A stretch of DNA of 64,000 nucleotides from contig JAXLYM010000003.1 in the NCBI GenBank assembly GCA_046351455.1, positions 280,364-344,363 on the forward strand, given 5' to 3'. This DNA is from Polyangiaceae bacterium (GTDB lineage Bacteria; Myxococcota_A; Polyangia; Polyangiales; Polyangiaceae). Below are positions 25,682-49,051 of the stretch, one piece after another; the stretch's first letter is position 1, and each line of letters begins with the position of its first letter. Position numbers and translations under genes: made by a program. The notes beneath the pieces are model-generated. The model worked only from the letters and a program-made list of their open reading frames with translations. It had not been told where the DNA came from and searched no databases.

Positions 25682-26374
25682 GTGACGGCCAAGAAGAAGA
25701 TCCTCCTCATCGAGGACGAGCCGCACATCGTGCTCGGCCTGACCGACGCCCTCGAATTCGAGGGGTTCTGCGTCGTGTCGGCGAACAAGGGCAAGGACGG
25801 CGTGCAACTCGCGCGGCACGAGAAGCCGGACGCGATCCTCCTCGACCTGATGCTGCCCGACACGAACGGCTTCAAGGTGTGCGAGGAGCTGCGTCGCTGG
25901 GACGCGTTCGTGCCCATCCTGATGCTGACGGCGCGCTCGCAGGAGGTCGACAAGATCCGCGGCCTCGACGCCGGCGCGGACGACTACGTGACGAAGCCCT
26001 TCAGCGTCGGCGAGCTGATCGCGCGCATCCGTGCGCTCTTCCGTCGCGCGGCGCGCCCCTCCGAGGCGACCGCGGAGACGTTCACGATCGGCGAGGCGTC
26101 GGTGAACCTCACGACGCACACGCTCACGCGCGGAGGCAAGGCGTCGCAGCTCTCGTTCTACGAGGTGGAGCTTTTGCGCCTGCTCAACGAGCGCATCGGC
26201 CAGCCCGTGCACCGCGACGAGATCCTCCAGAAGATCTGGGGCGTGGAGGGCACGCCGTCGAACCGCACCGTCGACAACTTCATCGTGAAGCTGCGCAAGA
26301 AGGTCGAGAAATCGCCGGACAAACCCGAGCACATCCTCACGGTGTACGGGTACGGGTACAAACTGGCCCCTTGA
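25682..26374 (+). CDS. OmpR-family response regulator (REC plus winged-helix DNA-binding domain)
   Basis: GTG start at [17 protein letters not shown] inside tracked ORF 24674..26374. The phospho-acceptor context is [13 protein letters not shown]. The wHTH is [16 protein letters not shown]...[11 protein letters not shown]. Confidence 0.85.
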
Positions 26375-26496
26375 CCGTACGCGGGCGGCTCCGCGGCGAC
26401 GTTCCACAGAGCGGCTATCGAGGGGGCGGCGAACAGAGTAGTCTCGGCGCCTCTGCGCCTCGTTCTCTCGGGGCCGCTTGCTTTCAGGGACGCTCG

Positions 26497-28620
26497 ATGA
26501 AGACACGCCACCTCCTCTCGTTGGGGCTCGCCGCGCTGTTCGTTTATCTCGTGGGGCCGGGCTGTACGCAGGACTTCGGGGCCTTTCAGCCGTGCGAGGT
26601 CGGGCAGAAGCCGTGCGACGACGGCTGCCACACCCTGCAGGACCCGACGCACGGCTGCGCGGCGGTCGCGTGCGATCCGTGCGCCATCCCGAACGCGGCG
26701 GCCGCCTGCGTGCTCGGGAACAGCAGCTACCAGTGCGCGGTCGGCACGTGCCTCGAAGGCCACCGGAACTGCGACGGCCTCGACGCGAACGGCTGCGAGG
26801 TGGACCCCGACACCGATCCTCTGAACTGCGGCGCCTGCGGCAACAAGTGTGTGACGCCCCACGCGACGCCCGCGTGCGATGCGGGCCAGTGCGCCATCGA
26901 CACGTGCGACGAGGGCTTCGGCGACTGCTCGGGCGGCGCGACGGACGGCTGCGAGAGCGACCTTCAGAACGACCCCGAGCACTGCGGCGACTGCGCCACG
27001 CAATGCGGCCAGGATCAGTCCTGTCAGGCCGGCAAATGCACCCTCCAGTGCCCCCCGGACAAGGGGGATTGCAACAGCGACCCATCGGACGGCTGCGAGA
27101 CCGATCTCGGCACGGGCCTGAACTGCGCCTTCTGCGGCGACAAATGCGATCTGCCGAACGCCGCGGCCCAGTGCCAGGCCGGCATGTGCGTGGTGCAGAG
27201 CTGCGCGAACGGCTTCGGCGACTGCGACGGGATGGCGGCGAACGGGTGCGAGGCGGACACGAAGAATTCCGCGCTGACGTGCGGCACCTGCGACAACGCC
27301 TGTCCGAACGGCCCGAACGGCACCACCGTGTGCAATAATGGCACGTGCGGGATCAACTGCGACGCTGGCTTCGCCAACTGCGATGGTCAAGTGGCGACCG
27401 GCTGCGAGACCGACCTGAACAGCGACGTCGATCACTGCGGCGGCTGCAACTCCCCTTGTAGCCCCGCGAACGGCGTCGGCGTGTGCAATGGCGGTCAGTG
27501 CGCGGTCCAGATGTGCAATGGCACCTTCGCCGACTGCGACATGGGCGCGGCGAACGGGTGCGAGATCAACACTGCCACGTCCGCGCAGAACTGCGGCATG
27601 TGCGGGAAGGTCTGCATCTTCGCGCACGCGCAAGCCAACTGCGCCGCCGGCAACTGCCAGCTCGGCAACTGCAACGCTGGATTCGGCAACTGCAATAGCG
27701 ACCCAGCGGACGGCTGCGAGCTGCCGACGACGGCGGACGTGAACAACTGCGGCGGCTGCGGCAACGTGTGCCCCGGCGGCCCCGGCGGGACGGCGGTGTG
27801 CACCAACGGAGTGTGCGCGATCGCCTGCGATGCGGGCTTCGGCGACTGCGATAACGACGCCTCGAACGGGTGCGAGACGGCGCTCGACAACAGCGTGCAG
27901 AACTGCGGCGCGTGCGGTCACGTGTGCCAGACGTCGAACGGCGCCGTGGCGTCGCTGAGCTGCTCCGGCGGCCTCTGCAGCTCCGCGTGTGACATCGGCC
28001 GCGCGAACTGCAGCTATCCGTCCTCGCCGGCGCAGGACGACGGCTGCGAGCTGAACGCCTCGAACAGCAGCACGAACTGCGGCGGATGCGGCAACGCGTG
28101 CACGGCGCAGGGCAACCCGCAGAACCCGCTCCAGTGTGTATACAACGCACCTGGTGTGCAGAACCTGTGCGGTTGTTTCCAGAATTCGCAGTGTGACGGC
28201 GACGGTCCGGGCGGCCCGGCGCAAGGCTCTTGCAACAACGGCCTTTGTTCGTGCAACGGCACGGCCTGCGCGTCGGGAGAGGCGTGCGCCTCGCAGGGCG
28301 GCGTCAACGTGTGCTCGTGCGCGGCTGCGGGCGGAGCGGCCTGCGCCGCAGGTGAGACGTGCTGTGTGAGCCCGGCCGGTTGCAAGAACCTGCGCGCGGA
28401 CCCGCTGAGCTGCGGCGCCTGCGGCCACGCGTGCACGGAGGGCTTCATCTGCTTCGATCTGGGCGTGAACGCGGCACCGGAGTGCCGGTGCGACGCCGCC
28501 CTCGACTGCAACGCAGGCACGAGCGGCACCTTCGCGTGCAGCGCCGCCGGCCGCTGCGTGTGCGGCGGCCAGACATGCGGCGTCGGCGAGCGCTGCCAGG
28601 CCAACGGCCAGTGCGGCTGA
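26497..28620 (+). CDS. Secreted lipoprotein built from about 13 tandem myxobacterial-type Cys-rich repeats (consensus NCGxCGNxC, GFxDCDG, NGCE)
   Basis: The real start is an internal Met (MKTRHLLSLGLAALFVYLVGPGC, a lipobox) of tracked ORF 25879..28620. The roughly 40-aa Cys-rich units recur throughout. Confidence 0.85.
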   Translation: MKTRHLLSLGLAALFVYLVGPGCTQDFGAFQPCEVGQKPCDDGCHTLQDPTHGCAAVACDPCAIPNAAAACVLGNSSYQCAVGTCLEGHRNCDGLDANGCEVDPDTDPLNCGACGNKCVTPHATPACDAGQCAIDTCDEGFGDCSGGATDGCESDLQNDPEHCGDCATQCGQDQSCQAGKCTLQCPPDKGDCNSDPSDGCETDLGTGLNCAFCGDKCDLPNAAAQCQAGMCVVQSCANGFGDCDGMAANGCEADTKNSALTCGTCDNACPNGPNGTTVCNNGTCGINCDAGFANCDGQVATGCETDLNSDVDHCGGCNSPCSPANGVGVCNGGQCAVQMCNGTFADCDMGAANGCEINTATSAQNCGMCGKVCIFAHAQANCAAGNCQLGNCNAGFGNCNSDPADGCELPTTADVNNCGGCGNVCPGGPGGTAVCTNGVCAIACDAGFGDCDNDASNGCETALDNSVQNCGACGHVCQTSNGAVASLSCSGGLCSSACDIGRANCSYPSSPAQDDGCELNASNSSTNCGGCGNACTAQGNPQNPLQCVYNAPGVQNLCGCFQNSQCDGDGPGGPAQGSCNNGLCSCNGTACASGEACASQGGVNVCSCAAAGGAACAAGETCCVSPAGCKNLRADPLSCGACGHACTEGFICFDLGVNAAPECRCDAALDCNAGTSGTFACSAAGRCVCGGQTCGVGERCQANGQCG

Positions 28621-28715: not shown

Positions 28716-31145
28716 ATGGGCAACACGCTCGCCGACGAGCCGCTCCCTCCCACGCAAAGTCAGCCCCCGGACGGGGATCGCCCGACGCTCGATGACGTGC
28801 CGCCGGCCGCGCAACCGCCGCGACGTGGGGCCTCGCCGACGCTGGTGGACCAGCCGGTGGGGGCACGACGTGGGGCCTCGCCGACGCTGCCGGACATGCC
28901 GCCGCCGCACACGTACCCGACGCCGCCGCAGGCCCCGCTCCACGCAGCGCCGCCCCCCGCGACGGCCGCGATGCGCGCGATGCCGACGCCGCCCGCAGCG
29001 CCGCTCCATGCGGGGCCGCCGATGGCCGTGACGCAGCCGGTCGCGCCGCTGCACGCCGCGCCGGCGCAGATGGCGGTGACGCAGCCCGTGCCGGTGCACC
29101 CGGCAGCCGTGCAGGCGGTGGCGCCGCAGCCGATGGCCCCGGCCGCGATGGGGTTCGGGAGGCCGCCGACGGCGTTCGCGACGACCCCGGACGCGCCTGC
29201 CGCGCCGCCGAAGGCGCTCCCGGCGGTCCCGAACGTGTCTGGCGGAGCGCCAAACCCGATCTCGGCGGTCCCGAAAGTGTTTGGCGGACCGCCAAACCCG
29301 ATCTCGGCCGCCCAAAGTGCTTTTGGCGGACCGCCAAACCCGATCTCGGCGGTCGAGAAGCCTTTTGGCGGTTCGCCGAACGCCTCCGGGAGCGCCGAGA
29401 AGCCTTTTGGCGGACCGCAAGCTCCGAGCGCGCCAGTCGCGAGCCCGATGGTGCCTATTCTGGCGGGGGCCGCTGCGTCTCCGCCTTCGGAGGTCCGGAT
29501 TCCGCCGGGGCCGCCGACTCCGCCGCCTCCGCCGGTCGCGTATCCGGCGCCCGCTCAGTCGGCGGGGCTGCTCGCGCAGATTCCGGCGATGCCGGGGCAA
29601 CGGGCGCAGGTGGTGGCGCCGCCGCACCTCTTCGGGGCGCCCACTCCCGTGAGCGACACGACGCCGGACGCGCACGATCCGCACGAAGAAGCGGCCCGCG
29701 AGGCGCTGCCGCCTCCGCCCGCAGCCGCCGCGCCCGCCGCTGCGGCGCCCCTCGTGACGCCCGCCGCCGCAGCGCTCGCCGCCGCAGAACCTGGCGCCGC
29801 CGCTACGGCCGCCGCAGGACAGAATACGACCAGCTCCGTGGGCGGTCCGATGCCGGGTGCGACTCCCGTGCTCGCTCCTGGGGCGCGGACGCTCCTCGGC
29901 GTTGCGCCGGCGACTCCCCCGCACGCGGGGCCGCATGTGCCGGGCGCGCAAGGGGGCAACGCACAAGGGACCAATCCTCAAGGCGCCAATTCGCAAGGAC
30001 CCAATCCGCAAGGCGGCAACTCACAAAGTGCCAGTCAGCAAGGGCCCAATCCGCAAGGCGTCAATTCGCAAGACGCCTCTCCCGCTGGACAGCCCTCCTC
30101 CGCGGACGCCTCCGAAAGTGAGCCCGCCGAGGCCGGGGAGCCGCAAGCGAACGAGATGCGGCCGACCGTCACCGACGCGGCTCCGCCGGGGCGTGCCAGG
30201 AAGTGGATCGCCGCAGTCCTCGCCGTGATCGGCGTGCTCGCGATCGCCGGTGTCGTGATCGGGTATCTGTTCCTCGTGCGGTACACGCCTCTCGCGCGCC
30301 GGCACATCCCGGCCGCCTCCAACGTGGCCATCCGCGTGGACGCGCGGCAGATTGGCACCTTCGCCCCCGTGCGAAAGTACCTCTGGCCCCTGCTCGTCGA
30401 CAGGCCCTCTCAGAAGGCCGGAAAGACCTTCGCCGACCGCGTCTCCGAGGACACTGGCATCAACCCGACCCTCGATATCCGCGAGATGATCGTCGCCTCC
30501 ATGGACTCGAAGAGCTGGGTGCTCCTCGTGGGCGGCAACTTCAAGCCTGGCAAATTCGTACCGGGCATGGAGAAGGTCTTTCAGGAAGAGGGCATTCAGG
30601 GCTGGCACCGCAACGCAGAAATGCTCGTCGGCCCCACCGGAATCGCGATGGCGCAAGCCGATGACGGCACGCTCGTCCTCGGCACGGAGGCGGAGATCGT
30701 GACGGCGTCTCTCCCCGCCTCCGAGGAGTACAAGCGCATGGACCTGCCCGAGACGGGCGCTCTCGGATTCGCGATGAGCAAGGAGGCTTTTGAAGAGCTG
30801 TCGCGCGAGACAGGCGCCTTCGACCCGAGCGGCGCGATGCGGCGAATCCGCCACATGAAGGGCACGTTCACGCTCGGCGACGACCCGCAGATCGACATCG
30901 ACATCGAGCCGAAGGGCGGCGAAAAACCGGAGACGCTCGGTCAAGACGTGGAGTCGTTCCTCGGCAAGCTGCGCCTGGGCCTCGTGCTGTTCCCGGACCG
31001 CTTCGGCGAGAAGACAGCGCTCTCCTCCGCGAAGGTGGCAGTCGAGAACGAGCACGTGCGCGTGCGCGGCCCGTGGCCCCTCGAAGGCCTCGACCGAGGT
31101 TGCGAGAAGCTGGTGACGCTGCTGGGCCTGGCGCAGCCTCGGTGA
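28716..31145 (+). CDS. Proline-rich single-pass membrane protein with internal peptide repeats and a globular C-terminal domain
   Basis: The N-terminal roughly 480 aa are Pro/Ala-rich, with GGPPNPISA x3 and NPQG(x)NSQG repeats. A TM helix follows (WIAAVLAVIGVLAIAGVVIGYLFLV), then a non-repetitive 300-aa domain. Confidence 0.65.
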   Translation: MGNTLADEPLPPTQSQPPDGDRPTLDDVPPAAQPPRRGASPTLVDQPVGARRGASPTLPDMPPPHTYPTPPQAPLHAAPPPATAAMRAMPTPPAAPLHAGPPMAVTQPVAPLHAAPAQMAVTQPVPVHPAAVQAVAPQPMAPAAMGFGRPPTAFATTPDAPAAPPKALPAVPNVSGGAPNPISAVPKVFGGPPNPISAAQSAFGGPPNPISAVEKPFGGSPNASGSAEKPFGGPQAPSAPVASPMVPILAGAAASPPSEVRIPPGPPTPPPPPVAYPAPAQSAGLLAQIPAMPGQRAQVVAPPHLFGAPTPVSDTTPDAHDPHEEAAREALPPPPAAAAPAAAAPLVTPAAAALAAAEPGAAATAAAGQNTTSSVGGPMPGATPVLAPGARTLLGVAPATPPHAGPHVPGAQGGNAQGTNPQGANSQGPNPQGGNSQSASQQGPNPQGVNSQDASPAGQPSSADASESEPAEAGEPQANEMRPTVTDAAPPGRARKWIAAVLAVIGVLAIAGVVIGYLFLVRYTPLARRHIPAASNVAIRVDARQIGTFAPVRKYLWPLLVDRPSQKAGKTFADRVSEDTGINPTLDIREMIVASMDSKSWVLLVGGNFKPGKFVPGMEKVFQEEGIQGWHRNAEMLVGPTGIAMAQADDGTLVLGTEAEIVTASLPASEEYKRMDLPETGALGFAMSKEAFEELSRETGAFDPSGAMRRIRHMKGTFTLGDDPQIDIDIEPKGGEKPETLGQDVESFLGKLRLGLVLFPDRFGEKTALSSAKVAVENEHVRVRGPWPLEGLDRGCEKLVTLLGLAQPR

Positions 31146-31195
31146 GGGGCCCACTCTCCTCGACAGCGCTCCGCCCCACTCCGCAGCCTCGTTTC

Positions 31196-31217
31196 AAGGG
31201 GAACGCCCCTTCCTTTC
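31196..31217 (+). terminator. Possible intrinsic terminator hairpin (AAGGGG-aacg-CCCCTT followed by cctttcc)
   Basis: A 6-bp GC-rich stem with a tetraloop sits about 50 nt after the stop at 31145. The downstream tract is only weakly T-rich. Confidence 0.3.
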
Positions 31218-31239
31218 CACGCCGTGCTAGCGTAGCGCC

Positions 31240-32076
31240 ATGACGAGCCGCAGCCACGCGTACTCCCAAGGTCCCTTCCGCGCGGACCAGCTCCACTCGG
31301 GCGACGAGTACGAGCTGTCGCGGGGCCACGCGATTCGTTGCGCGCCGACGGGCGGAGCGGGCTCGGGCAGCAATCAGGTCGGGGCCTCCGTCGTCGGCTG
31401 GGACCCGCAGGTGACCGAGGTCGGCGTCGATACGGGTTATGCCCCTGCTCCGGATATGCTGCGCGCGCCGGACGTCGCGGTGGGCAACGTCCCGAACAAG
31501 CCTGGATGGGTGAAGGGCGCGCCGTCGCTGGCGATCGAGTACGCGGACGTCGGCCAAGACGAGGTCGCCTTGGAGGAGAAGATCCGCGATCTCCTGGCGT
31601 TCGGTACGCGTTATTTGTGGGTAGTCCGCCTCACGGGCAAGCGCCGAGTCGAGGTGCACGAGCCGGGGAAGAAGATGCAGACCGCCTATCCGGGCGAGAT
31701 GTTGACGGCCCCTGGAGTGCTGAAGAACGCGGTCCGGGTAGAGGCGCTTTACGATCGCGACGAGGCCGAGCGCGCGACGCTGGTGAACCTGCTCCAGCGC
31801 CGCGGTTATGAGGATCTCGAGGCCGTGCTCGCGAAGGGGCGCGAAGAAGGACGCAAAGAGGGGCGCGAAGAAGGACTCGAAAAAGGGCGCGAAAAAGGCC
31901 GCCGCGAGGTTCTGGTGCAGGCGGTGCCGGCGCTTCTGGAGGCCAGAGGCCTCGGGGTCGACGCCGCGACCCGCGCGAGGATCGATGCGGCGGAGGTGCG
32001 TGATCTGGAGCGATGGTTCCAGCGCGCAGCCTCCGGACAGGTTCAGTCCACGAGCGAGCTGTTCGAGACAGCCTGA
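31240..32076 (+). CDS. Uma2-family (DUF820) PD-(D/E)XK endonuclease fused to a DUF4351-like C-terminal domain (REEGRKEGREEG repeat)
   Basis: The Uma2 core is PDVAVGNVP...PSLAIEYADVGQDEVALEEKIRDLLAFGTRYLWVV. The C-terminal KGREEGRKEGREEGLEKGREKGRRE...ARIDAAEVRDLERW region is typical of DUF4351, as found in Rpn/YhgA-like nucleases. Confidence 0.8.
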   Translation: MTSRSHAYSQGPFRADQLHSGDEYELSRGHAIRCAPTGGAGSGSNQVGASVVGWDPQVTEVGVDTGYAPAPDMLRAPDVAVGNVPNKPGWVKGAPSLAIEYADVGQDEVALEEKIRDLLAFGTRYLWVVRLTGKRRVEVHEPGKKMQTAYPGEMLTAPGVLKNAVRVEALYDRDEAERATLVNLLQRRGYEDLEAVLAKGREEGRKEGREEGLEKGREKGRREVLVQAVPALLEARGLGVDAATRARIDAAEVRDLERWFQRAASGQVQSTSELFETA

Positions 32077-32154
32077 GGCCATCTACGTTAGGTTGCTTCC
32101 ACGGGAAGCGGCCAGAACCACGGGCGAGCGCACACGTCGTCTTCGAGGGGCGGG

Positions 32155-32230
32155 GCGCGTGCGCGGCCCGTGGCCCCTCGAAGGCCTCGACCGAGGCGCG
32201 GACAAGCTCGTGAAGCTCCTCGGGCTCTGA
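32155..32230 (+). repeat. Direct repeat: duplicated 3' coding tail of gene 28716..31145 (copy 2; copy 1 is at 31059..31145). The first 42 nt are identical.
   Basis: The 42-nt string gcgcgtgcgcggcccgtggcccctcgaaggcctcgaccgagg is identical at 31059-31100 and 32155-32196. The two tails then diverge but stay parallel: ...GPWPLEGLDRGCEKLVTLLGLAQPR* versus ...GPWPLEGLDRGADKLVKLLGL*. Both end in a stop codon. Confidence 0.8.
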
Positions 32231-32304
32231 AACAAGCCTTATCGAGACGCGTGCCAGGGAGGCGCCAGCCCCGACGCGACCTCTCCCGCGGCCCCCAAAA
32301 AGCC

Positions 32305-33168
32305 TTAACCGAAGAGTTGCTCCGCGTCCGTCACCGTGAGGACCGCGGTCACCCATCGGTCCAGAAGGGCCATGTCCTTCGTCGCCTGGATTCTGGCCCG
32401 CGCCTGCTCCGACACAGGGACGCCGCGCGCCCCCAGGAGACCGAGAATTACCTGTTGCTTCGCCAGGAGTTGACCCTCCTCGCGCCCCTCCTCGCGCTCC
32501 GCCGCGAGCGCTTTCACGATCGGCTCCGGGCGCTTCGTGAGCAGCGCCTCCGCGACCTCGTTGTCCGCTTGGAGCCAGTCCACGATCCCGTTCGCGCTGA
32601 TCGGGCGCACGAAACAGGGGTCCTCGATCACCGCGTCCGTCGCGAGCTTCTCCCAGCGGCCCTCGCTCGACGACCACTCGAAGATGGCCCGCTCCTTCGT
32701 GAACACCGCGAACACCCGCCGTACACCGCGAGCCTTCAGCTCCACCGCCTTGCGCGTCGGGATCGCCGCCGCCTGACGGTCGACCACCTCGAAGACGATC
32801 TCCTCCAGCTTGCGAGCGATCGGCACCTCCGCGCGCGGGTCCCCGGTCGGCTCGTACACCGAGACGTCGGCCGCGAAATCCGACCCTTCCTCCGTGCGCG
32901 TCAGCATATCGACCGCCACCGCGTAAGGCTCTCTCACGTTCGCGCCGATCACGCGGTCCACATAGCTGTGCTGCCTCCCGTGGCACTCCCCCGCCGGCGC
33001 CGCGAAGATCTCCTGGCCATTCAAGTACTCGACGCGCGTCTCCGGCGGCGCGAGCCGATCGTCCACGGCGGGAAGCCGCGACCCCTCACCAGGGAACGAC
33101 GCAGATCCCCCCCCGCCCGCCGGGGGACACCAAAAATGAGCGGAGCCGTGGCTGGCCATGGGCCCCAC
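32305..33168 (-). CDS. Second Uma2-family (DUF820) endonuclease fused to a DUF4351-like domain, convergent with the first
   Basis: The Uma2 core is RVEYLNGQEIFAAP...YAVAVDMLTRTEEGSDFAADVSVYEPTGDPRAEVPIARKLEEIVFEVVD. The C-terminal AAEREEGREEGQLLAKQQVILGLLGARGVPVSEQARARIQATKDMALLDRW region matches DUF4351. Confidence 0.75.
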   Translation of the reverse strand: MGPMASHGSAHFWCPPAGGGGSASFPGEGSRLPAVDDRLAPPETRVEYLNGQEIFAAPAGECHGRQHSYVDRVIGANVREPYAVAVDMLTRTEEGSDFAADVSVYEPTGDPRAEVPIARKLEEIVFEVVDRQAAAIPTRKAVELKARGVRRVFAVFTKERAIFEWSSSEGRWEKLATDAVIEDPCFVRPISANGIVDWLQADNEVAEALLTKRPEPIVKALAAEREEGREEGQLLAKQQVILGLLGARGVPVSEQARARIQATKDMALLDRWVTAVLTVTDAEQLFG

Positions 33169-33275
33169 AGTACCACAAATCAGCGCCGCGAGCGTGACGT
33201 GCCCCCTCGCGCTGTACCCTTGGATCCGCCGGAAATGCCATCCCCTTCCCCGTCCAGTGATACCCTGCCCGATCG

Positions 33276-33587
33276 ATGGCGAAGACCCTTCACCTCAAGA
33301 GCACCGGCAAGCTGCTGCTCCGCATGAACGACAAGCAGTTCGAGGATCTGACTCGGCTGCTCCAGGAAGAAGACAGCACGGACCGGGACTACTTCGTGGA
33401 CGAGACGACGATCCCTTATCTCCTCGCGAAGGGGTGCGATCACGCGCTCGTCGAGGCGCTTCGGCACGCTCTGGAGCATAAGCGAACAGCCTACCGCGAT
33501 CCGGCCACGCCGGAGGTCACGCAGGACGAGAACGACGCGCCCGATGGCATCGACGTCGAGTGGCGCGACTCGGAGGAAAGCGCGTAG
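33276..33587 (+). CDS. Small acidic hypothetical protein (103 aa), translationally coupled to the downstream subtilase
   Basis: GC3-rich, non-repetitive ORF. Its TAG stop overlaps the GTG start of the S8 protease gene (TAGTG). Confidence 0.6.
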   Translation: MAKTLHLKSTGKLLLRMNDKQFEDLTRLLQEEDSTDRDYFVDETTIPYLLAKGCDHALVEALRHALEHKRTAYRDPATPEVTQDENDAPDGIDVEWRDSEESA

Positions 33588-34717
33588 TGCGACCTCAGGT
33601 CTATTCAATCCCGGAACGGCTGGAAGCTTCGTTCCGCTACAAAGGGCGCGGGGTGGTCATGGGGTTCGTGGACAGCGGGTTCTACCCGCACCCGGATCTC
33701 ATGCGGCCGAAACGGCGCGTGAAGGTGTATGCCGACGCCACGCGCGACAAGCCCACCGCCGGCGACTTCTTCAACCCACAAGTCTGGAGCTGGCACGGCA
33801 CCATGACCGCCTGCTGCGCCGCCGGAAATGGCTGGGTCTCCGGCGGGCGCTACCGCGGGCTCGCCTCCGAAGCCGAGGTCATCCTCATCAAGGCCGGCGT
33901 CGACGACGGGCAGATCCTCGGCAAGAACGTGGCGCACGCCATCCGGTTTCCGCTGCGGTATCCGCACCTCGGCATCAAGATCCTCAACGTGTCTCTCGGC
34001 ACCTCGCCGAGCGATCCGGACATCGCCGACGTCGAGGCCGCCGTCGAAGAGGTGGTCGCCGCCGGAATCACGGTGTTCGCCGCGGCCGGCAACGTCGCGG
34101 GACAACCCCCCTCCGGCCCCGGCGCCGCGAAGAGCGCCATCACCGTCGGCGGCGGCAACGACAACAACACTCCCGGGTTCGAAGACGACACGATCTGGCC
34201 CTCCAGCCACGGTCAGGTGAAGTCCGGAGTCATCAAGCCGGACCTCATCGCGCCGGCCATCTGGGTCCCCGCGCCGATGCTCCCCGGCACGCCGACGGCC
34301 CGGGAAGCAGCGCCCTTGTTTCAGCTCCTCTCGGTGTACGAAGAGCTGTCGGCAGAATACGGCTTCTCCGAGACGCGGCAGATCGCCACGCCGGAGGAGC
34401 GTGCCAGTGTGACGGCGCTCATGGACGCCCTCGCCGCCCGCATCCAGCGGTGCAAATACATCTCTCCCGACTACCAGCACGTCGACGGGACGTCGTTCGC
34501 CGCGCCGATCACCGCCTCCGTGGGGGCGCAGATGCTGGAGGCGGATCCGCTGCTGACGCCCGCGGAGATCCGAGAAGGCCTCTGCGCCACGGCCCGGCCT
34601 CTTCCGAAGGTCGACAAGGGGCTTCAAGGCGCCGGCGTCGTGCGGCCGCGCGCAGCCGTGGAGTGGGCGCTCAAGCGCTCTCACAAACACAAGCTCGTCA
34701 CGAAGAGCGCGAAGTAA
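33587..34717 (+). CDS. Subtilisin-like serine protease (peptidase S8), with no signal peptide or prodomain
   Basis: The catalytic triad motifs are GFVDSGF (Asp), WHGTMTA (His) and GTSFAAPI (Ser). GTG start (VRPQVYSIPERLEA) inside tracked ORF 33560..34717. The catalytic Asp sits about 30 residues from the N-terminus. Confidence 0.85.
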   Translation: MRPQVYSIPERLEASFRYKGRGVVMGFVDSGFYPHPDLMRPKRRVKVYADATRDKPTAGDFFNPQVWSWHGTMTACCAAGNGWVSGGRYRGLASEAEVILIKAGVDDGQILGKNVAHAIRFPLRYPHLGIKILNVSLGTSPSDPDIADVEAAVEEVVAAGITVFAAAGNVAGQPPSGPGAAKSAITVGGGNDNNTPGFEDDTIWPSSHGQVKSGVIKPDLIAPAIWVPAPMLPGTPTAREAAPLFQLLSVYEELSAEYGFSETRQIATPEERASVTALMDALAARIQRCKYISPDYQHVDGTSFAAPITASVGAQMLEADPLLTPAEIREGLCATARPLPKVDKGLQGAGVVRPRAAVEWALKRSHKHKLVTKSAK

Positions 34718-34781
34718 CAAAAGGTGCCCCCCCGGCGCCGCCTGCCTATCGACGGGCGGCGATCACCGGGGTGCGGACACG

Positions 34782-34889
34782 CTACTTGCCGTCCTTCTTG
34801 GCGGCCTTTTCCTTCTTCTTGGCCTGCTTCTCCTTGGTGCTGAGCTTGGGCTTGTTACTCTTCGCCGGTTTCTCTTGACCCTTGGCCAT
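34782..34889 (-). CDS. Tiny Lys-rich protein (35 aa: MAKGQEKPAKSNKPKLSTKEKQAKKKEKAAKKDGK), not in the ORF track
   Basis: I translated it by hand from the reverse strand. It has a perfect Shine-Dalgarno (AGGAGG-cgacg-ATG) and lies in an otherwise unannotated 290-nt gap. Coordinates are approximate, +/-2. Confidence 0.45.
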   Translation of the reverse strand: MAKGQEKPAKSNKPKLSTKEKQAKKKEKAAKKDGK

Positions 34890-35004
34890 CGTCGCCTCCT
34901 GCGCTGCAATCTGACCGAACAAGTGTGCATGCGGTCAAGCAGAGCGGAAGCCCGCGCTGTTTTTTTTCTCTCGTCGGCGGGGGATCGGAGGTAAGCGGCC
35001 TCCC

Positions 35005-35772
35005 ATGGCGCGCAACGACGGCAGAGGCCCGGACGAGCACCGGCGCATCGAGATGACCCCGGGCTTTCACCGCAACGCGGAGGGCTCCGTGCTGTACCGC
35101 GCGGGGAACACCGTGGTCCTGTGCACAGCTTCGATCGACCCCTCCGTGCCCGCATGGATGGTCGGCCGCGGCACCGGCTGGCTCACCGCGGAGTACCAGA
35201 TGCACCCGCGATCGAGCCCGCAGAAGCGCGAGCCCCGCGACGGCCGCGGCAAGGCCCCGAGCGGGCGCACGCAGGAGATCCAGCGCCTCATCGGGCGCGC
35301 GCTGCGGGCCGCCGTCGACATGAAGGCGCTCGGCGAGAAGACGATCGCGATCGACTGCGACGTGCTCGAAGCGGACGGCGGGACGCGCACGGCGTCGATC
35401 TCGGGCGGCTTCGTGGCGCTCGCGCTCGCGGCCGCGAAGCTCCACAAGCGCGACGGCGCGGCTCCCTTCCTGCGCGAGCCCGTCGCCGCGATCAGCGCCG
35501 GCAAGCTCGGATCCGAGGTGCTCCTCGATCTCGTGTACGAAGAGGATCGCGACGCCGACGTGGATCTGAACCTCGTCGCGACCGAGTCCGGCGCCATCAT
35601 CGAAGTGCAAGGCACCGCCGAGGGCGAGCCGATGTCGCGCGCCGAAATGGACGCGCTCATCGACGCGGCGCTCGCGGGCGTGCACTCGATCACGCGGCTC
35701 CAGCGCGCGGCCCTCGCAGGCGAAGGCGTCGAGCTGCGCGCGCTGCAGGTGCCCCGCGGGGCCGCGTCGTGA
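35005..35772 (+). CDS. rph: Ribonuclease PH
   Basis: The sequence matches bacterial RNase PH: [31 protein letters not shown]...[10 protein letters not shown]...[23 protein letters not shown]. Confidence 0.9.
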   Translation: [255 protein letters not shown]

Positions 35773-36425
35773 CGTCGCCGTTCACGCTGCTGCTCGCGAC
35801 GACGAACCGCGGCAAGCTCGTCGAGCTGCAAGCGCTCTTCGGCGACATCGGCGTGGAGCTCGTGTCGCTGTCGACGCTTCCGGGCAAGCACCCGCCGGTG
35901 ATCGAAGACGGCGACACGTTCCTCGCGAACGCGCTCCTGAAGGCGAACGCCGCCGCGCAGCGCACCGGCATGGTGACGATCGCGGAGGACTCCGGCCTCG
36001 AAGTGGACGCGCTCGGCGGGCGGCCCGGCGTGTACTCCGCGCGCTTCGCGAAGGAAGGCGCGACCGACGCGGAGAACAACGCGCGCCTCTTGAACGAGCT
36101 GGAGGACGTCACCGACGACCTGCGCGCGGCCCGCTTCCGGTGCACGATGGTGCTCGTGGATCCGTGGAGCGCAGGGGAGCCGATCGTCACGGAAGGCCGG
36201 TGCGAAGGCTCGATCCTGCGCGCGGCCCGCGGCCACGGCGGCTTCGGGTACGACCCCTTGTTCCTCGTGGACGGGGAGGAGGTCACGATGGCGGAGCTCG
36301 GCGAATTCCGGAAGAACCAGCTCAGTCACCGCGCGCGCGCCGCGCGGGCGATGCGGCCGCTCCTGCTCTCGCTCGTGGAGAGCCGCATGCGCGACGCGAA
36401 CGCGCTGCTGCGAGGCGCGCCGTGA
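35769..36425 (+). CDS. rdgB: Non-canonical purine NTP pyrophosphatase (RdgB/HAM1 family)
   Basis: GTG start overlapping the rph stop (GTGA). Motifs LLLATTNRGKLVELQ, FGYDPLF and FRKNQLSHRARA are present. The rph-rdgB gene order is conserved. Confidence 0.85.
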   Translation: MTSPFTLLLATTNRGKLVELQALFGDIGVELVSLSTLPGKHPPVIEDGDTFLANALLKANAAAQRTGMVTIAEDSGLEVDALGGRPGVYSARFAKEGATDAENNARLLNELEDVTDDLRAARFRCTMVLVDPWSAGEPIVTEGRCEGSILRAARGHGGFGYDPLFLVDGEEVTMAELGEFRKNQLSHRARAARAMRPLLLSLVESRMRDANALLRGAP

Positions 36426-36856: not shown

Positions 36857-37268
36857 GAAGAAGACCGACGCGCCGAAAGCCGGTGAAGACGAAGGCGGAG
36901 GCGCGGACGACAAGACGCTCCAGGCCGCGGTGAAGACCGTCGCGGCGACGGCCGGCGTGGTGACGGTGGTCGCGATGATCGCGGCGGGCCTGCGTTTCGG
37001 CCTCGGCGTGGCCGCGGGCGGCGCGATCGCGGTCGCGAACCTCATCGTGCTCGCGCGCGTCGTGCAGGCCTTCCTGACGAAGAAGGGCAACACCGCGCCG
37101 TGGGCGATCATCGCGGTGCTGAAGCTCGTGCTGCTCCTCGGCGGCGTGTGGATGATCCTGAAGAGCGAGGTCGTCTCGGGCCTGCCGCTCGTGATCGGCT
37201 ACATGTCCTTGCCGGTCGGCGCGGTGGTGGCGTCGCTGTTCGGCCCGAAGCCGCCGGAAGACGGCTGA
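36849..37268 (+). CDS. Four-TM small membrane protein (ATP synthase protein I-like)
   Basis: Overlaps the upstream gene by 8 nt. The hydrophobic hairpins are GVVTVVAMIAAGLRFGLGVAAGGAIAVANLIVLA and WAIIAVLKLVLLLGGVWMIL...LPLVIGYMSLPVGAVVASLF. Confidence 0.5.
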   Translation: MSEKKTDAPKAGEDEGGGADDKTLQAAVKTVAATAGVVTVVAMIAAGLRFGLGVAAGGAIAVANLIVLARVVQAFLTKKGNTAPWAIIAVLKLVLLLGGVWMILKSEVVSGLPLVIGYMSLPVGAVVASLFGPKPPEDG

Positions 37269-37384
37269 TTTCGAACACCGGAGTCGCCGGCTCGGGGGGC
37301 CGCTCCGGCGAATCCACGCGTCATTCGCTCTCTCGGGTTGTGATAGCCTGACGGCGAATCGCATCGGTTGGGCGGACGCCGCGC

Positions 37385-39604
37385 ATGTCCCTGTTGCAGA
37401 CGACCCGATATCGCTTCCACGTGCTCCGCGAGGATCGCGGCACGGCGATGTGGGTGCTCGGGATCGCGGCCGTGGCGTGCGCCTTCTACGCGCGGAACGA
37501 CCTTGTCCTCTTCCGCGGCTCGCCCCTCCTCGCGCCCCTCTTCCTGACGCGCGCCACGATCGTGACCGTGTGTGTCGCGGCCTTGCTGACCGTGCGCCGC
37601 GCCAAGAGCCCGCAGCGGTTCGACGCCGCGATGGCCGCCGCGACGCTGAGCCTCGCCGCGGGCACGCTGGTGATCGGCTACACGCGCAACCTCCACGGCG
37701 AGCACCTCGGCCAGATCGTCACCAACACGCTCCTCGTCACGACGGCGTATTTCCTCCTCCGCGGCGCGCTCTGGTACCGCATCGCGACGGCGCTCGTCGT
37801 GTCCTCGGCGACGGTCCTCGCCGTGTGGGCGCCGGCCGCGCAGACAGGCACCGTGACGCGCGGCTCCATCGTCATCGGCGTGCTCGCGCTGAACGCCCTC
37901 GGGATCACGCTCGCGCGCACCCACGAGTCGGAGCGCCGCCGCCGCTACGAGGCCGAGCGAAAGGCCACGGTCGCCATTCACCGGCTCGCCGAGGAGAAAG
38001 AGAACGCCCTCGCCCTCTCGCGCACGAGGACCGCCTTCCTGACGGCGATGAGCCACGAATTCCGCACGCCGATGAACGCGGTGATCGGCCTGTCGGAGAT
38101 CCTCGCCGCCGGCCACCTGGACCCGGAGCAGAAGGAGCACGCCCGCGCGATCCGCGACAGCGCGAAAGGCCTCCTCGCGCTCCTCAACGACATCCTCGAT
38201 TTCGCGAAGATCGACGCCGAGCGACTGACCCTCTCGCCGTCCCCGTTCGAGATCCGGAGGCTCACGACGTCGGTGTTCGCGATGATGCGCACGTCGATCC
38301 AGGACAAGCCCATTTCGCTGGATCTCCAGATCGGCGCGGACGTCCCGGACATCCTGCTCTCGGGCGACGAGCCGCGCCTGCGGCAGGTGCTGGTCAATCT
38401 GCTGTCCAACGCCATCAAGTTCACCGAGCGGGGCCGCATCTCGTTGGAGGTGACGTCGCGCCCCAGGACGGGCGGCGCGCACGAGGTGACGTTCCGCGTG
38501 ACCGACACCGGAATCGGCATCTCCGAGGAGGCCCGAAGTCGCCTGTTCCGCCCCTTCGAGCAGGCCGATCAGGGCATCGAGCGAAGGTTCGGCGGCACGG
38601 GCCTGGGGCTCGCGATCTCGAAGCGCATCGTCGAGGCGATGGGCGGCGAAATCGAGGTGAAGAGCGAGGTCGGGAGGGGCTCCGAATTCGGCTTCACGGT
38701 GCGCTTCCCGGCCGCGACGGGGGCGGCGCAGCTCTCGGGCACGTGGACGCGCGGCGGCATCCCGGCGCCGAAGATGGATATCCTCCTCGTCGACGATCAC
38801 GCGGTGAACCGGCAAGTCGCGCAGGCGGCGTTGCGTCGATTGGGCCAGACTCCCGATCTCGCCGCGGACGGAGCGGAGGCGATCAAGGCGGCCGAGGCGA
38901 AGCGCTACGACCTCATCTTCATGGACCTCCAGATGCCGAAGCTCGGCGGGATCGAGGCCGCGCGGAGGATCCTGGAGTCGCCGGAGAGCGGCAGTCCGCA
39001 CATCGTGGCGATGACCGCGAGCGTGATGGAGACGGACCGCGCCGCGTGCCTTTCCGCCGGGATGCGCGGCTTCCTCGGAAAGCCGATCGAGATGGGCGAG
39101 CTGGCCCAGACGTTGACGCGGGTCGCCGCCGAGCGAGGCGGCCCCGGGGCCTTGTTGGGACTCGCGACCTCCGTCCCCTCGTCCCCGGCAGAGCCGCACG
39201 CGGAGGAGATGGCCATTCTGGACAAGAAGCCCCTCGGCACGCTGCGGGCGCTCTCCGCGGAGGTGGAGCCGGGCTTCGTGGCCTCCGTTTGCCGCGAATT
39301 CTTGCGCGACGCCGCCGAACGCCTGAACGACGCACAATCCGCATTCGAACGGTCCGATCTGGACCGGATCCGCGCCGAGGCCCACACCCTCCGAGGCGGC
39401 GCGGCCACCGTCGGCGCGACGGCCTTCCACGATCTCCTGGGCCGCCTGGAGACGCTGGCCCGCTCGGGAAAAGAGGCCTCCCCGGCCGAAACGACGCGCC
39501 TCCTCGCGGAGGTGGAGCCGCTCCTCGCCGAGGCCCGCCGCGAGCTCGCCCGCGTCGAGCGCGCGCTCCTGGCCGAGATGGCCGGCGCCGAACAGGGCCG
39601 CTGA
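37385..39604 (+). CDS. Hybrid sensor histidine kinase (TM sensor, HisKA, HATPase_c, REC, HPt)
   Basis: H-box LTAMSHEFRTPMN. ATPase motifs are TDTGIGI and GGTGLGLAISK. The receiver domain is ILLVDDHAVNRQ...DLIFMDLQMP. The C-terminal HPt is AHTLRGGAATVGA. Confidence 0.85.
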   Translation: MSLLQTTRYRFHVLREDRGTAMWVLGIAAVACAFYARNDLVLFRGSPLLAPLFLTRATIVTVCVAALLTVRRAKSPQRFDAAMAAATLSLAAGTLVIGYTRNLHGEHLGQIVTNTLLVTTAYFLLRGALWYRIATALVVSSATVLAVWAPAAQTGTVTRGSIVIGVLALNALGITLARTHESERRRRYEAERKATVAIHRLAEEKENALALSRTRTAFLTAMSHEFRTPMNAVIGLSEILAAGHLDPEQKEHARAIRDSAKGLLALLNDILDFAKIDAERLTLSPSPFEIRRLTTSVFAMMRTSIQDKPISLDLQIGADVPDILLSGDEPRLRQVLVNLLSNAIKFTERGRISLEVTSRPRTGGAHEVTFRVTDTGIGISEEARSRLFRPFEQADQGIERRFGGTGLGLAISKRIVEAMGGEIEVKSEVGRGSEFGFTVRFPAATGAAQLSGTWTRGGIPAPKMDILLVDDHAVNRQVAQAALRRLGQTPDLAADGAEAIKAAEAKRYDLIFMDLQMPKLGGIEAARRILESPESGSPHIVAMTASVMETDRAACLSAGMRGFLGKPIEMGELAQTLTRVAAERGGPGALLGLATSVPSSPAEPHAEEMAILDKKPLGTLRALSAEVEPGFVASVCREFLRDAAERLNDAQSAFERSDLDRIRAEAHTLRGGAATVGATAFHDLLGRLETLARSGKEASPAETTRLLAEVEPLLAEARRELARVERALLAEMAGAEQGR

Positions 39605-39678
39605 GCCGCCGCGATCCGGCGATTTCGCGCAGTTGTCGCGCGCGCGAGCGGAATCCGGAAGGGTTACCCTGCCGGCGA

Positions 39679-41409
39679 ATGCCCTCCGACAAGCCGAAAC
39701 GGATCCTTTACCACGGGCCCACTGCCCGCTCGTTCGAAGGCCTGGCGCGCTCGGTCGCCGCGGCCACGTCCGGCGCGCCCTTCGATGGAGAGGCCGAGAT
39801 CACGGTCACCCACGACGGACAGGCCTGCACGCTCGTGAACCGCCCGGGCCGGGAGGCGCTCGTCGAGGACCTGCGCACGAGCTACGTGAACCTGCTCGTC
39901 CTCGACACGCGGTGCGACAACGAAGCGGCCCCCGGCGAGCACGCGCTCGAGATCCTGGACGCGCTCGACAAGGTGCTCGACGTCGAGGATCGCTACGGCT
40001 TCCACCGCATCCTCGTGCTCGTCGGCGGCGGCCTCGGGGAGCCGACCGACGACCTCATCCTGAAGCTCGGCGCGCGCGGCGTGGGGCGCGTGCTGCGCCA
40101 CCCGGAGTGCCACGGGCCGGAGACGGTGGACCCCGCGTTCGGCAAGAAATTCTTGCAGGAGGCGCGGATCGCGCTCGGCGATCGCAAGCCGGGCAAGCGG
40201 GCCATCTGCGCGGCCGGCGGCGGCATCACCGGCATCTTCTTCGAGCTCGGCGTGCTCAAGTGTCTGGATGACTGTCTCGACTCGGGCGGAGTCAACGACT
40301 TCGACATGTATTTCGGCATCAGCGCCGGCGCCGTCGTGACAGGCCCTCTCGCGGTCGGCTATTCGGTCGACGAGTTCATGGCCGCCGTCGCGGGCGTGGA
40401 GGGCGGGCGCATCGGGCCCCTGGATCTGCGGCTGTTCCAGCTCGGTCACGTGGACTTTCCGGGGTTCGCGCGGCGGTGGGGCGCGGCGGCTCGCTCGATG
40501 TGGGGCGGCTTCACGCGGCGGCTCCGGCGCGGAGAGGACCTGTCGCGCGAACAGCTCCTCTTCGACTACGTGGACCTCGTCGCGCCCCCGTTCCGCGCCG
40601 ACCGATTCGAGGAGACGCTCCACCGCATCCTCTCGGCGAAGGGCGCGACCAACGACTTCCGCGATCTGGATCGCCCGCTCTTCGTGGGCGCGACGGATCA
40701 GGACGAGCGGCGTCATGTGCTGTTCGGGGACGAGGAGCACAGGCACGTCCCGATCAGCCGCGCCATCCAGGCTTCGCTGAGCATCAACCCGGCCTTCTCG
40801 GCGACTCCCATCCTCGGGCGGTACTACGAAGACGGGGCCGTCACGCGCACCAGCAACTTCGTGGAGGCCATGCGCCGCGGCGCGACGTTGATCTTCGTCG
40901 TGGACCCGTTCCTGCCGTACGTCGCGCGGACTCCGGGGTTCAACGACCGGCGCGGCGCGCTCTACAACATGGATCAGGACGTGCGGACGATCTCGTACAC
41001 GCGCTACGAGACGACGCGAAACTGGGTGTTACGCAAGCACCCGCACGTGTCGAGCTACACCTTCGTGCCGGCCAATCGCCAGCGCCGCCTCATCTCCCAG
41101 AATCCGATGGATCACCGCCCGTACCTGGAGATCTGGCGCGGAGCGTACCTGTCGACCCTGAAGCGCCTCACGCACGTGTCGCACCGCCTCGAAGGCGACC
41201 TGCGCGTACACGGCTTCGGCGTGGATCTGTCGCGGGCGCAGGCCGTCGCCGAGCAGCTCGAAGCGGCGCACAGCCTGTCGTTCGAGGACTTCTTCCCGGA
41301 CCGCCGCGCGCGCCTCAAGACTCCCCCGCTCGTGGGGCAGCGGCGCCTCCCCGGCGCGCCGAACCCCCTCATCGCCGCGAAGACCGAGATAGAAGCTCTC
41401 GCGCGGTGA
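39679..41409 (+). CDS. Patatin-like phospholipase with a roughly 190-aa N-terminal domain
   Basis: Internal Met start (MPSDKPKRILYHG) of tracked ORF 37450..41409. The oxyanion motif is CAAGGGITGIFFELG. The nucleophile elbow is GISAGA (GxSxG). Confidence 0.85.
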   Translation: MPSDKPKRILYHGPTARSFEGLARSVAAATSGAPFDGEAEITVTHDGQACTLVNRPGREALVEDLRTSYVNLLVLDTRCDNEAAPGEHALEILDALDKVLDVEDRYGFHRILVLVGGGLGEPTDDLILKLGARGVGRVLRHPECHGPETVDPAFGKKFLQEARIALGDRKPGKRAICAAGGGITGIFFELGVLKCLDDCLDSGGVNDFDMYFGISAGAVVTGPLAVGYSVDEFMAAVAGVEGGRIGPLDLRLFQLGHVDFPGFARRWGAAARSMWGGFTRRLRRGEDLSREQLLFDYVDLVAPPFRADRFEETLHRILSAKGATNDFRDLDRPLFVGATDQDERRHVLFGDEEHRHVPISRAIQASLSINPAFSATPILGRYYEDGAVTRTSNFVEAMRRGATLIFVVDPFLPYVARTPGFNDRRGALYNMDQDVRTISYTRYETTRNWVLRKHPHVSSYTFVPANRQRRLISQNPMDHRPYLEIWRGAYLSTLKRLTHVSHRLEGDLRVHGFGVDLSRAQAVAEQLEAAHSLSFEDFFPDRRARLKTPPLVGQRRLPGAPNPLIAAKTEIEALAR

Positions 41410-42643: not shown

Positions 42644-42820
42644 GGGGCGAAACGCCCGCGGATGGTGCCGCGAACCGGGCCGATTGAAAAGAGAAGTCTC
42701 GTGCGTCGCGCATCGCCTGCGCCGAGTCGCCGCGTCGTCGGGCGGCGATCGCCGTTCTCTGCGGGGTTTTGGGGCGGGAGAGGTCTTGTTTCGTGGCGCG
42801 GCTCTTGCGATACGGATCGT

Positions 42821-43336: not shown

Positions 43337-43338
43337 GG

Positions 43339-43788: not shown

Positions 43789-43861
43789 GGGGCGGACGCT
43801 ACCTCAGCGCACGTCGCGGGTCCATCCGTCGGCGCTTCGCGAGAGCGCGCCCGCGCCGCGG

Positions 43862-46075: not shown

Positions 46076-46087
46076 GCACTCTCCGCG

Positions 46088-46426: not shown

Positions 46427-46522
46427 TGTCTGACCACCTTTCGCCGCGCATGGGAGTCGCCGCGGGGCCGAGCGTCAAGAGGAACCTTTCCCGCCGCGTG
46501 AACCGGGGCGTAGCATCCGCGC

Positions 46523-48925: not shown

Positions 48926-48997
48926 GGCCTTGAGTCGAGATAGCCAGTCTCCGCGACCGCTCCGATCTCGCGGGAGGCTCGTCGGGGGAGTGAAACG

Positions 48998-49014
48998 AGG
49001 GGGCGGAGCCCCCT
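48998..49014. terminator. GC-rich hairpin (AGGGGGC-gga-GCCCCCT) between convergent genes
   Basis: A 7-bp stem sits between the stop codons at 48925 (plus) and 49052 (minus). The flanks are not clearly T-rich. Confidence 0.3.
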
Positions 49015-49051
49015 TGTAAAAACGCCAGTGGCGCCCCTTGTAAGACCTGGA

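Follow-up and report, generated by a model that had tools for sequence, protein, structure and literature searches.

Some prophages and genomic islands use the 3' end of a tRNA or protein-coding gene as their integration site and bring a replacement end with them; lambdoid phage 21 and e14 do so in the icd gene of E. coli. Insertions are also made by template switching or by homology-facilitated illegitimate recombination, and short direct repeats then undergo concerted evolution. Among the solitary nuclease genes of bacteria, the rpn genes are defence-type toxin-antitoxin genes that were described as 'not autonomously mobile' (Zhong et al. 2023, PMC10400941), and RpnS, which is annotated as DUF4351 in some species, is the intragenic antitoxin tail of the Rpn (YhgA-like, recombination-promoting) nucleases (PMC10400941). 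The Uma2 protein was proposed as a likely solo toxin forming cassettes of paralogues (PMC2701414), and the Uma2/DUF820 family of predicted PD-(D/E)XK nucleases (COG4636) has repeatedly expanded, in cyanobacteria, Thermus and myxobacteria (PMC2701414, PMC1274311, PMC9403480). In the literature on the family, no nuclease activity has been demonstrated for any Uma2 member. Here we analysed a stretch of 64,000 nt (the window, by which the whole stretch is meant) from Polyangiaceae bacterium assembly GCA_046351455.1, contig JAXLYM010000003.1, positions 280,364-344,363, in which the 3' end of one gene (the host gene) is found twice, on either side of a gene of the Uma2 family (Uma2-A). The source genome is a metagenome-assembled genome (MAG) with the NCBI locus-tag prefix U0441.

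The locus was similar to the phage 21/e14-type islands in that a direct repeat of a gene 3' end flanked the insert, one junction was intact while the other held an orphan, and a block of identity was followed by divergence. It differed from them in having no integrase, a length of ~1 kb, a single gene and a native working tail; moreover, the identical block was younger than the insertion, the insertion was fixed in a clade, and the structure was unique in the gene family. We consider it probable, at about two chances in three, that the locus is the scar of a single, old and non-recurrent insertion, which was inherited vertically and whose orphan core was later gene-converted. It is an ordinary kind of scar and does not define a new class of site-specific element of 1.1 kb. 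The features of the insertion are as follows.

28716-31145, plus strand: host gene, 809 aa; the N-terminal half is rich in Pro and Ala, and the protein has a single transmembrane segment and a conserved domain at the C-terminus
31058-31132, plus strand: repeat copy 1, the final 25 codons of the host gene and its working 3' end, with the identical core at 31058-31099; its lineage-specific changes are all synonymous
31093-31143, plus strand: stem-loop across the host gene end, with arms of 12 nt (31093-31104 and 31132-31143) that are 92% complementary
31133-31145, plus strand: four-codon extension (AQPR) and new stop codon, created at the left insertion junction
31146-31239, plus strand: spacer upstream of Uma2-A, with a -10-like box (GTGCTAGCGT) 7 nt before the ATG
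31240-32076, plus strand: Uma2-A, 278 aa, a Uma2/DUF820 domain of PD-(D/E)XK fold followed by an RpnS-like helical C-terminal module
32077-32154, plus strand: spacer downstream of Uma2-A, the right end of the inserted DNA, containing an inverted copy at 32141-32151
32155-32230, plus strand: repeat copy 2, the orphan, which is the original gene end in situ, with the identical core at 32155-32196
32197-32227, plus strand: decayed tail of the orphan (GADKLVKLLGL), with the stop codon at the ancestral position 32228-32230
32231-32301, plus strand: ancestral intergenic remnant, contiguous with the orphan tail and 76% identical to positions 11150-11206 of the empty-site relative L001

An earlier inspection of the letters alone (the sequence-only reading) had reported a duplicated gene end with an identical 42-nt core, and this was confirmed at 31058-31099 and 32155-32196. 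The core, GCGCGTGCGCGGCCCGTGGCCCCTCGAAGGCCTCGACCGAGG, was present exactly twice in the window, with a spacing of 1,097 nt from start to start; no further copy with up to three mismatches was found in the window, and 100 shuffles gave zero matches. A repeat search extended the pair to 72 nt with 86% identity (family D4). Counted by codon, the repeat was ~75 nt long and ended with the last sense codon (31058-31132 and 32155-32229), which corrected the ~85 nt given earlier. All ten mismatches of the repeat were located in the final 30 of the 72 nt (hypergeometric P = 5.6e-5). Both edges were sharp, because in global alignment neither the 78 nt preceding the core nor the DNA that follows the repeat scored above shuffle level; directly upstream of the core in copy 2, identities to copy 1 (14/60) were at chance level. 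A frameshifted similarity upstream of the core ('HVVFEGRG') was a first impression only and resolved into an inverted repeat of core sequence.

Homologous loci were collected by a search with the host C-terminal domain, which gave 34 homologues, and by an alignment-based contig scan, which gave 48 genomic loci. It was found that six orthologous loci (L001, L002/L003, L044, L059, L092 and L093) were empty: the host gene led directly to a gene for a 103-aa protein and on to the S8 peptidase and RNase PH genes, and a Uma2 gene was absent. By blastn, window positions 32156-32231 corresponded to the gene end of L001 and 32244-32301 to its intergenic DNA. In a multiple alignment, the orphan, its stop codon and the next 70 nt ran collinear to the block of tail, stop codon and intergenic DNA in L093 and L001, and ~1.0 kb (31133-32154) was extra DNA relative to the empty loci. 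The orphan directly adjoins the ancestral stop codon and the ancestral intergenic DNA, and so an insertion did occur. The proposed insertion geometry was thereby upheld, as was the existence of empty sites, for which the sequence-only reading had suggested a search.

The six empty loci came from three clades that are more distant from the window than a sister lineage with a filled site, represented by L097 and L098. These are contigs of two independent assemblies and were found by a search with a second Uma2-family protein of the locus (Uma2-B, 86% identical). The reverse complement of L098 aligned to window positions 30090-32094 (host gene end, spacer and Uma2-A) and 32289-33194 (Uma2-B), and that of L097 to 31537-32094 and 32289-35982, so that the order host gene, Uma2-A, Uma2-B was confirmed by both assemblies. 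The L098 host gene ended ...GCEKLVTLLGLSQAR, with the same junction and the same four-codon extension (SQAR* versus AQPR*), and the spacer at 31146-31239 was homologous to the L098 spacer. The empty relatives had nothing homologous to this spacer and were all without the extension, ending ...LLGL*. Within the window, the orphan ended ...LLGL* like every close orthologue, and the working copy alone added AQPR*. The Uma2-A orthologue of L098 was intact, with 81% amino-acid identity.

The nucleotide identity between the window and L097/L098 was 93% over the 103-aa gene and the S8 peptidase gene and 90% over the host domain; it was 82-85% to the empty clade of L001, L092 and L093, and lower to L002, L044 and L059. 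The filled and empty states tracked the phylogeny, and therefore a single insertion can be placed on the branch leading to the window and L097/L098. As judged from these comparisons, the insertion is one old event that was inherited vertically afterwards. A recent, polymorphic insertion was contradicted by the closest relatives, L097/L098, which carry Uma2-A at the same junction. The sequence-only reading had named, as the outcome that would tell against it, relatives that carry the gene and both tails with no empty alleles, together with other Uma2 copies that lack flanking duplications. This outcome was largely observed: the nearest relatives were filled and the other Uma2 loci were without repeats, but empty alleles existed farther out and the sister lineage was without the orphan.

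With six relatives as the reference, changes in the tail were polarised. All private changes of the working tail (GGT, CTG twice, GGC) were synonymous, and L098 had one of these as well. It had been supposed that the insert brought a foreign replacement tail; the working tail, however, differed from the reconstructed native tail at synonymous sites only. The orphan showed 7-8 private changes in the 33 nt after the core. One of them, TGC to GCG, replaced a Cys that was conserved in the 12 closest orthologues listed (P0001-P0008 and P0010-P0013) by Ala, and E to D and T to K changes were also observed. The pattern of substitutions fits what would be expected of a native duplication, with one copy under selection and the other drifting.

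The Jukes-Cantor distance at four-fold sites was 0.24-0.39 between the window and L097/L098 and 0.61-0.65 between the window and L001. The neutral expectation for the orphan since the insertion was 0.12-0.3 substitutions per site, and ~0.2 was observed in the part after the core. For the core, by comparison, 0 changes in 42 nt were observed and at least 5 were expected (P <= 0.007). The unchanged core beside a decayed tail shows that the core is younger than the insertion, which is at odds with the proposal that it served as an att-like crossover site. In addition, position 31 of the core held the window-derived C in the orphan too. Between the host gene and its 82%-identical orthologues no identical run was longer than 32 nt, and none lay in the core; a crossover or chance identity between diverged orthologues was thus ruled out as the source of the core. 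These substitutions are best explained by a later gene conversion in which sequence of the working copy replaced the first 42 nt of the orphan. The core would then be perfect beside a saturated tail because of gene conversion, not because of an att-type crossover.

The two junctions gave some indication of how the insertion may have been made. The inserted DNA started exactly at the former stop codon, and its first 20 nt were an inverted copy of host-tail sequence. At the other end, the last 14 nt of the insert repeated part of the core interior in inverted orientation: a perfect inverted repeat of 11 nt (32141-32151 and 32173-32183, with a loop of 21 nt) paired the right end of the insert with a stretch inside the orphan core, and the local fold was -43 kcal/mol (z = -2.2). 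Both junctions therefore bore inverted copies of 11-12 nt of host-tail sequence. At the left junction, the stem-loop across the host gene end was accompanied by an outer 8-bp stem (31076-31083 and 31144-31151), the 3' arm being formed by the new extension and the first bases past the stop codon. L098 (reverse strand, ~1995-2095) kept the stem-loop, with one compensatory C-G to T-A change that involved two synonymous sites. The host-end stem-loop may serve in termination or stability, or it may be a fold-back scar left by the insertion. A scan for consensus promoters and terminators gave no matches.

The two inverted microduplications together with the 75-nt direct duplication suggested a template-switch or illegitimate event, although we hold this origin with low confidence. 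The locus was like template-switch insertions in being a one-off with a short flanking duplication, inverted microcopies at the junctions and a later partial homogenisation. It was also like the target-site duplications of transposons, in that a direct duplication of the target bracketed the insert and both copies were originally native. Unlike these, the duplication was 75 nt long instead of the usual 2-15 nt, transposase and terminal inverted repeats were absent, and the event happened once. No transposon marks (transposase, terminal inverted repeats or conserved ends) were found at the insert with its 75-nt duplication. In comparison with homing endonucleases, the distribution of filled sites followed phylogeny and the Sorangium gene of the same family was syntenic, and both observations weigh against homing.

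The history that we propose begins in the ancestor of the window and L097/L098, after the L001/L092/L093 clade had split off. DNA of ~1.0 kb carrying a promoter-equipped Uma2-A was inserted exactly at the stop codon of the host gene, a conserved membrane-protein gene of Polyangiaceae. The event appears, on strong grounds, to have duplicated the native last ~75 nt: the upstream copy would have kept working and gained four codons and a new stop, and the downstream copy would have been left, as an untranslated orphan, on the original stop codon and intergenic DNA. The original event may have been illegitimate and associated with repair or replication, with template switching or homology-facilitated illegitimate recombination as the candidate routes, and would not have been catalysed by the cargo. 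Uma2-B was inserted ~150 nt downstream on the same branch. Under vertical inheritance the orphan decayed at about the neutral rate and appears to have been lost entirely in the L097/L098 lineage, and in the window lineage its first 42 nt would have been rewritten from the working copy by intrachromosomal gene conversion.

Several points weigh against this history. For the source genome, the evidence is that of the 64-kb window, and the sister lineage is represented by two contigs. No orphan copy was detectable in L097/L098, where the DNA between the Uma2 genes was recognisable only for ~18 nt past the Uma2-A stop codon and at the native 'CGGCCCCCA' end beside Uma2-B; a local alignment of the orphan tail to L098, compared with shuffles, was not significant. 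The orphan is placed in the common ancestor because of its contiguity with native intergenic DNA, and was not observed there. The case for conversion is a rate argument from 42 and 33 nt, with a single clearly derived site in common, and it is unusual for a conversion tract to extend exactly as far as the left limit of the repeat. Direct repeats of 42-75 nt that recombine would also be expected to delete Uma2-A as often as they convert. The inverted repeats of 11-12 nt at the junctions could equally be selected terminator stems instead of mechanistic scars, and fold z-scores at the junction stems were only -0.4 to -2.2. Finally, a donor search found no fragment of the host gene beside any Uma2-A homologue.

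The main rival to gene conversion is selection on the core as an arm of a hairpin. In that case the scar would also be old, and the orphan core would be held by selection as an RNA or DNA element, for instance as the 3' arm of a terminator hairpin of Uma2-A or as a terminator common to the convergent Uma2-A and Uma2-B transcripts. The perfect 11-nt inverted repeat and its fold are in favour of such an element, and so is its location between the convergent Uma2-A and Uma2-B, where terminators are needed. We nevertheless regard it as unlikely: the stem accounts for just 11 of the core's 42 nt, the window-specific synonymous change at core position 31 would not be copied by selection, the consensus scan gave no terminator, and L097/L098 manage without the element.

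It is improbable, too, that the orphan is younger than the Uma2-A insertion and arose by a later local duplication or by patchy recombination with the DNA of an empty-site relative. This would agree with the lack of an orphan in L097/L098 and with the alignment of the orphan and the intergenic remnant to L001 and L093, not to the intergenic region of L098. However, the part after the core matched the sampled empty alleles at 20-22 of 30 positions, no closer than it matched its own working tail (20/30), and there was no homology on the left side to guide a patch. The native right end of the intergenic DNA also lies beside Uma2-B in L098, and therefore native DNA separated the two Uma2 genes in the ancestor.

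The reading from which the analysis started was that of a minimal integrative element, with the Uma2 nuclease gene as its sole gene, inserted site-specifically or by a Campbell-type single crossover with a replacement tail and an att-like core. Its geometry fits (a gene end in direct repeat, with the intact gene on the left and the orphan on the right), empty loci were found, and the switch at the core end from 0% to saturated divergence is abrupt. These features are outweighed by the filled state common to the sister lineage, which tracked phylogeny, and by the native working tail and the core younger than the insertion. The remaining evidence on mobility was likewise unfavourable. No recombinase was found in the insert, where Uma2-A was the only coding-type ORF. 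Around 35 Uma2-A-family loci, obtained by contig look-ups and a metagenome scan, were checked for flanks by comparing 500 nt upstream with 500 nt downstream, and the best repeats, of 14-21 nt, did not exceed chance. A blastn search with the spacers, against every locus and the rest of the window, found no conserved element ends, and nucleotide homology among family members was restricted to the ORF and the 18 nt upstream of it. In three Sorangium genomes the gene occupied one syntenic slot (radical SAM, HATPase, Uma2, VWA, AAA, PLD), and no Uma2-A relatives were found on IMG/VR, phage or plasmid records. At 50 orthologous host-gene loci there was no duplicated tail and, outside the sister lineage, no Uma2 gene beside the host orthologue, and no other use of this site was seen; Uma2-B was unduplicated. 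No tRNA genes or Rfam matches at gathering score were present in the 64-kb window, and no Pfam hits to integrase or transposase families were obtained among eight ORFs scanned between 33.3 and 50 kb.

We therefore rate an integrative element as very improbable. Its central claim, a ~1.1-kb site-specific element, was undone by the absence of a recombinase from the insert, the one-off nature of the event and the confinement of the filled state to one clade. The role of the Uma2 gene as its driver did not withstand the ~35 loci without repeats, the ORF-limited homology, the Sorangium synteny and the lack of phage, plasmid and IMG/VR copies. Other Uma2 genes flanked by duplicated gene ends, a further expectation, were seen at none of the ~35 family loci and not at the adjacent Uma2-B. 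An att-like picture can accordingly arise without a mobile element, from an old illegitimate insertion followed by partial gene conversion, and here only the sister-lineage locus and the substitution-rate argument exposed the non-att origin.

A self-promoting cassette, in which the nuclease of the Uma2/RpnS-like gene breaks gene ends and homology-assisted repair captures the gene, is disfavoured and deserves little credence. If it were true, the core repeats would be kept identical by occasional excision and re-integration, and the host C-terminus would switch between ...GCEKLVTLLGLAQPR and ...GADKLVKLLGL. Least probable of all, as sources of the repeat, are the remains of a tandem host-gene paralogue, which had been offered as an alternative at the outset, and an artefact of assembly in a MAG source, given the lack of homology upstream of the core in copy 2 (14/60), the lack of a second gene copy at ~55 orthologous loci, the same gene order in two independent assemblies, and the consideration that an assembler should not be able to invent a 42-nt repeat without reads spanning both junctions.

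With the old, vertically inherited insertion as the preferred reading, the nature of its cargo is of some interest. That a single Uma2-family gene is the only cargo between the copies was borne out: 31240-32076 was the sole ORF there with a coding-type GC3, and Uma2-A matched the Pfam Uma2 model (PF05685) at 27.9 bits (gathering cut-off 27). Of the 51 homologues that were aligned (alignment A3), 49 also matched this model. An AlphaFold model of the protein (pLDDT 75.6) contained a long helix predicted at residues 193-235, and Foldseek matched it to DUF820 structures (3OT2 at E = 8.5e-5, 1WDJ, 9Y1L and 6OKH) over 80-100 aligned residues. At the sequence level, a PDB search with Uma2-A gave no match, NCBIfam no name and PADLOC, which has no model for either Uma2 gene of the locus, no hit. 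The conserved acidic PD...E core was present: E25, D78, E100, D103, Q106 and K114 were invariant in the 51 sequences, including the window protein, which had all the residues that are invariant in the subfamily.

The gene had been described as a Uma2-DUF4351 fusion, of which the first half stood. For the second, Pfam DUF4351 (PF14261) gave no hit at E <= 10 on isolated C-termini and none at E <= 0.01 in the 51 homologues. The C-terminal module was RpnS-like nonetheless: its ~100 residues shared 36% identity over 113 aa (E = 1e-12) with the C-terminus of the protein encoded at L001 7876-8985 (minus strand), which matched PDDEXK_2 at 4e-31 and is of Rpn type. Six 4-residue G-x-x-x repeats were present in this helical module of Uma2-A. 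The repeat number varied from 1 to 16 units among the 51 homologues, and the window protein and its L098 orthologue differed by two. At the DNA level, the G-R/L-x-E run at 31822-31906 was encoded by 12-nt repeats (family D5, 31835-31906).

Uma2-A thus resembled Rpn/RpnS (PMC10400941) in combining a PD-(D/E)XK nuclease with a small helical C-terminal module of variable 4-residue repeats, and in being a solitary, patchily distributed gene that is not autonomously mobile. It was unlike Rpn in that its nuclease domain was Uma2 (PF05685), not PDDEXK_2/Transposase_31, and in that the DUF4351 model and PADLOC were silent. It resembled the Uma2/DUF820 family in the Pfam and fold matches, the side-by-side paralogues, the lineage-specific presence and an evolution faster than that of the neighbours; unlike other members, the subfamily bears the extra RpnS-like module and is conserved at 60-80% amino-acid identity across Polyangiaceae. 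It was well represented there, with more than 1,200 hits, many of them in this range of identity. Between the window and L097/L098, both Uma2 genes outpaced their neighbours, with a four-fold-site distance of 0.53 versus 0.24-0.39, and Uma2-A differed at 16% of nucleotides versus 6-10% for the host domain and the S8 peptidase gene. By analogy, Uma2-A is most likely a one-gene nuclease of toxin/antitoxin type or antiphage function. The joining of Uma2 to an RpnS-like tail suggests that the intragenic-antitoxin logic of Rpn may extend to the large, functionally uncharacterised Uma2 family, and this Uma2/RpnS-like architecture is a more useful lead than the repeat structure.

The picture of one nuclease gene at the locus had overlooked the convergent Uma2-B, which lies just past the orphan. 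The features of the right flank are as follows.

32305-33168, minus strand: Uma2-B, a convergent second Uma2-family gene, given as the maximal ORF; the NCBI protein has 253 aa
33169-33257, no strand assigned: DNA upstream of Uma2-B that arrived with Uma2-B, with a -10-like box on the minus strand
33276-33587, plus strand: conserved gene for a 103-aa protein, directly after the host gene in all empty relatives

Uma2-B lay ~75 nt past the orphan tail, and 32302-33257 was a separate insertion of ~0.95 kb beyond a native block of ~150 nt. Because the 103-aa gene directly follows the host gene in empty relatives, it marks the right flank of the ancestral site. Uma2-B matched the Pfam Uma2 model at 35.6 bits; it resembled Uma2-A in the C-terminal module only and is distantly related to it. 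L097/L098 carried Uma2-B at 86% amino-acid identity and none of the empty relatives had it; no duplication was found at its flanks. The ~200-nt intergenic region therefore received two unrelated Uma2 genes on a single branch. The case documents the fixation of solitary nuclease genes at the ends of housekeeping genes in large myxobacterial genomes.

Upstream of the 103-aa gene, Uma2-A and Uma2-B, extended -10-like boxes (TGnTAnnnT) were noticed at a distance of 6-10 nt from the ATG, at 31222-31239, 33169-33190 (minus strand) and 33257-33275 in the window and also at L002 11255-11285 and L044 5916-5957. There is no room for a ribosome-binding site after these boxes, which suggested leaderless or near-leaderless transcripts.

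The host gene was conserved across Polyangiaceae, and its protein gave no Pfam or NCBIfam family match. The L059 orthologue began with MGNTLADEP, as did the host protein. The N-terminal half (28716-30200) was of low complexity, rich in Pro, Ala and Gly with a GC content of up to 81%, and contained tandem repeats (seven 15-nt units encoding QG-x-NP at 29949-30072, and 42-nt units at 29238-29432). In several relatives this low-complexity gene was truncated or split by gene callers. Its upstream neighbour (25879-28620) encodes a secreted-looking protein of ~900 aa with many Cys-rich repeats of the C-x-x-C-G-x-x-C type and was conserved in L001, L002 and L044 at 65-73% nucleotide identity.

Other indels were seen around the locus, and solitary PD-(D/E)XK nuclease genes were among those that distinguish otherwise collinear loci. 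L001 had an island of its own of ~5.4 kb (3580-9005) between the gene for the Cys-rich protein and the host gene, which was absent from the window and L002 and held a short Uma2 gene (7278-7829) in addition to the PDDEXK_2/Rpn-type gene (7876-8985); a further gene with the same C-terminal module was located at L001 15410-16387. In the ~70-nt block after the host stop codon, L001 carried a classical intrinsic terminator (11076-11149; GGCTGCC...GCAGCC followed by a T-run), a block that was absent from the orphan region of the window, from L093 and from L092. Farther downstream in the window, ~11.8 kb (37261-49067) was absent from the collinear L002 locus. The ORFs scanned in this segment were without an integrase or transposase match, and its genes encode a hybrid histidine kinase and radical SAM/B12-binding, kinase-like and SecD/F-like proteins.

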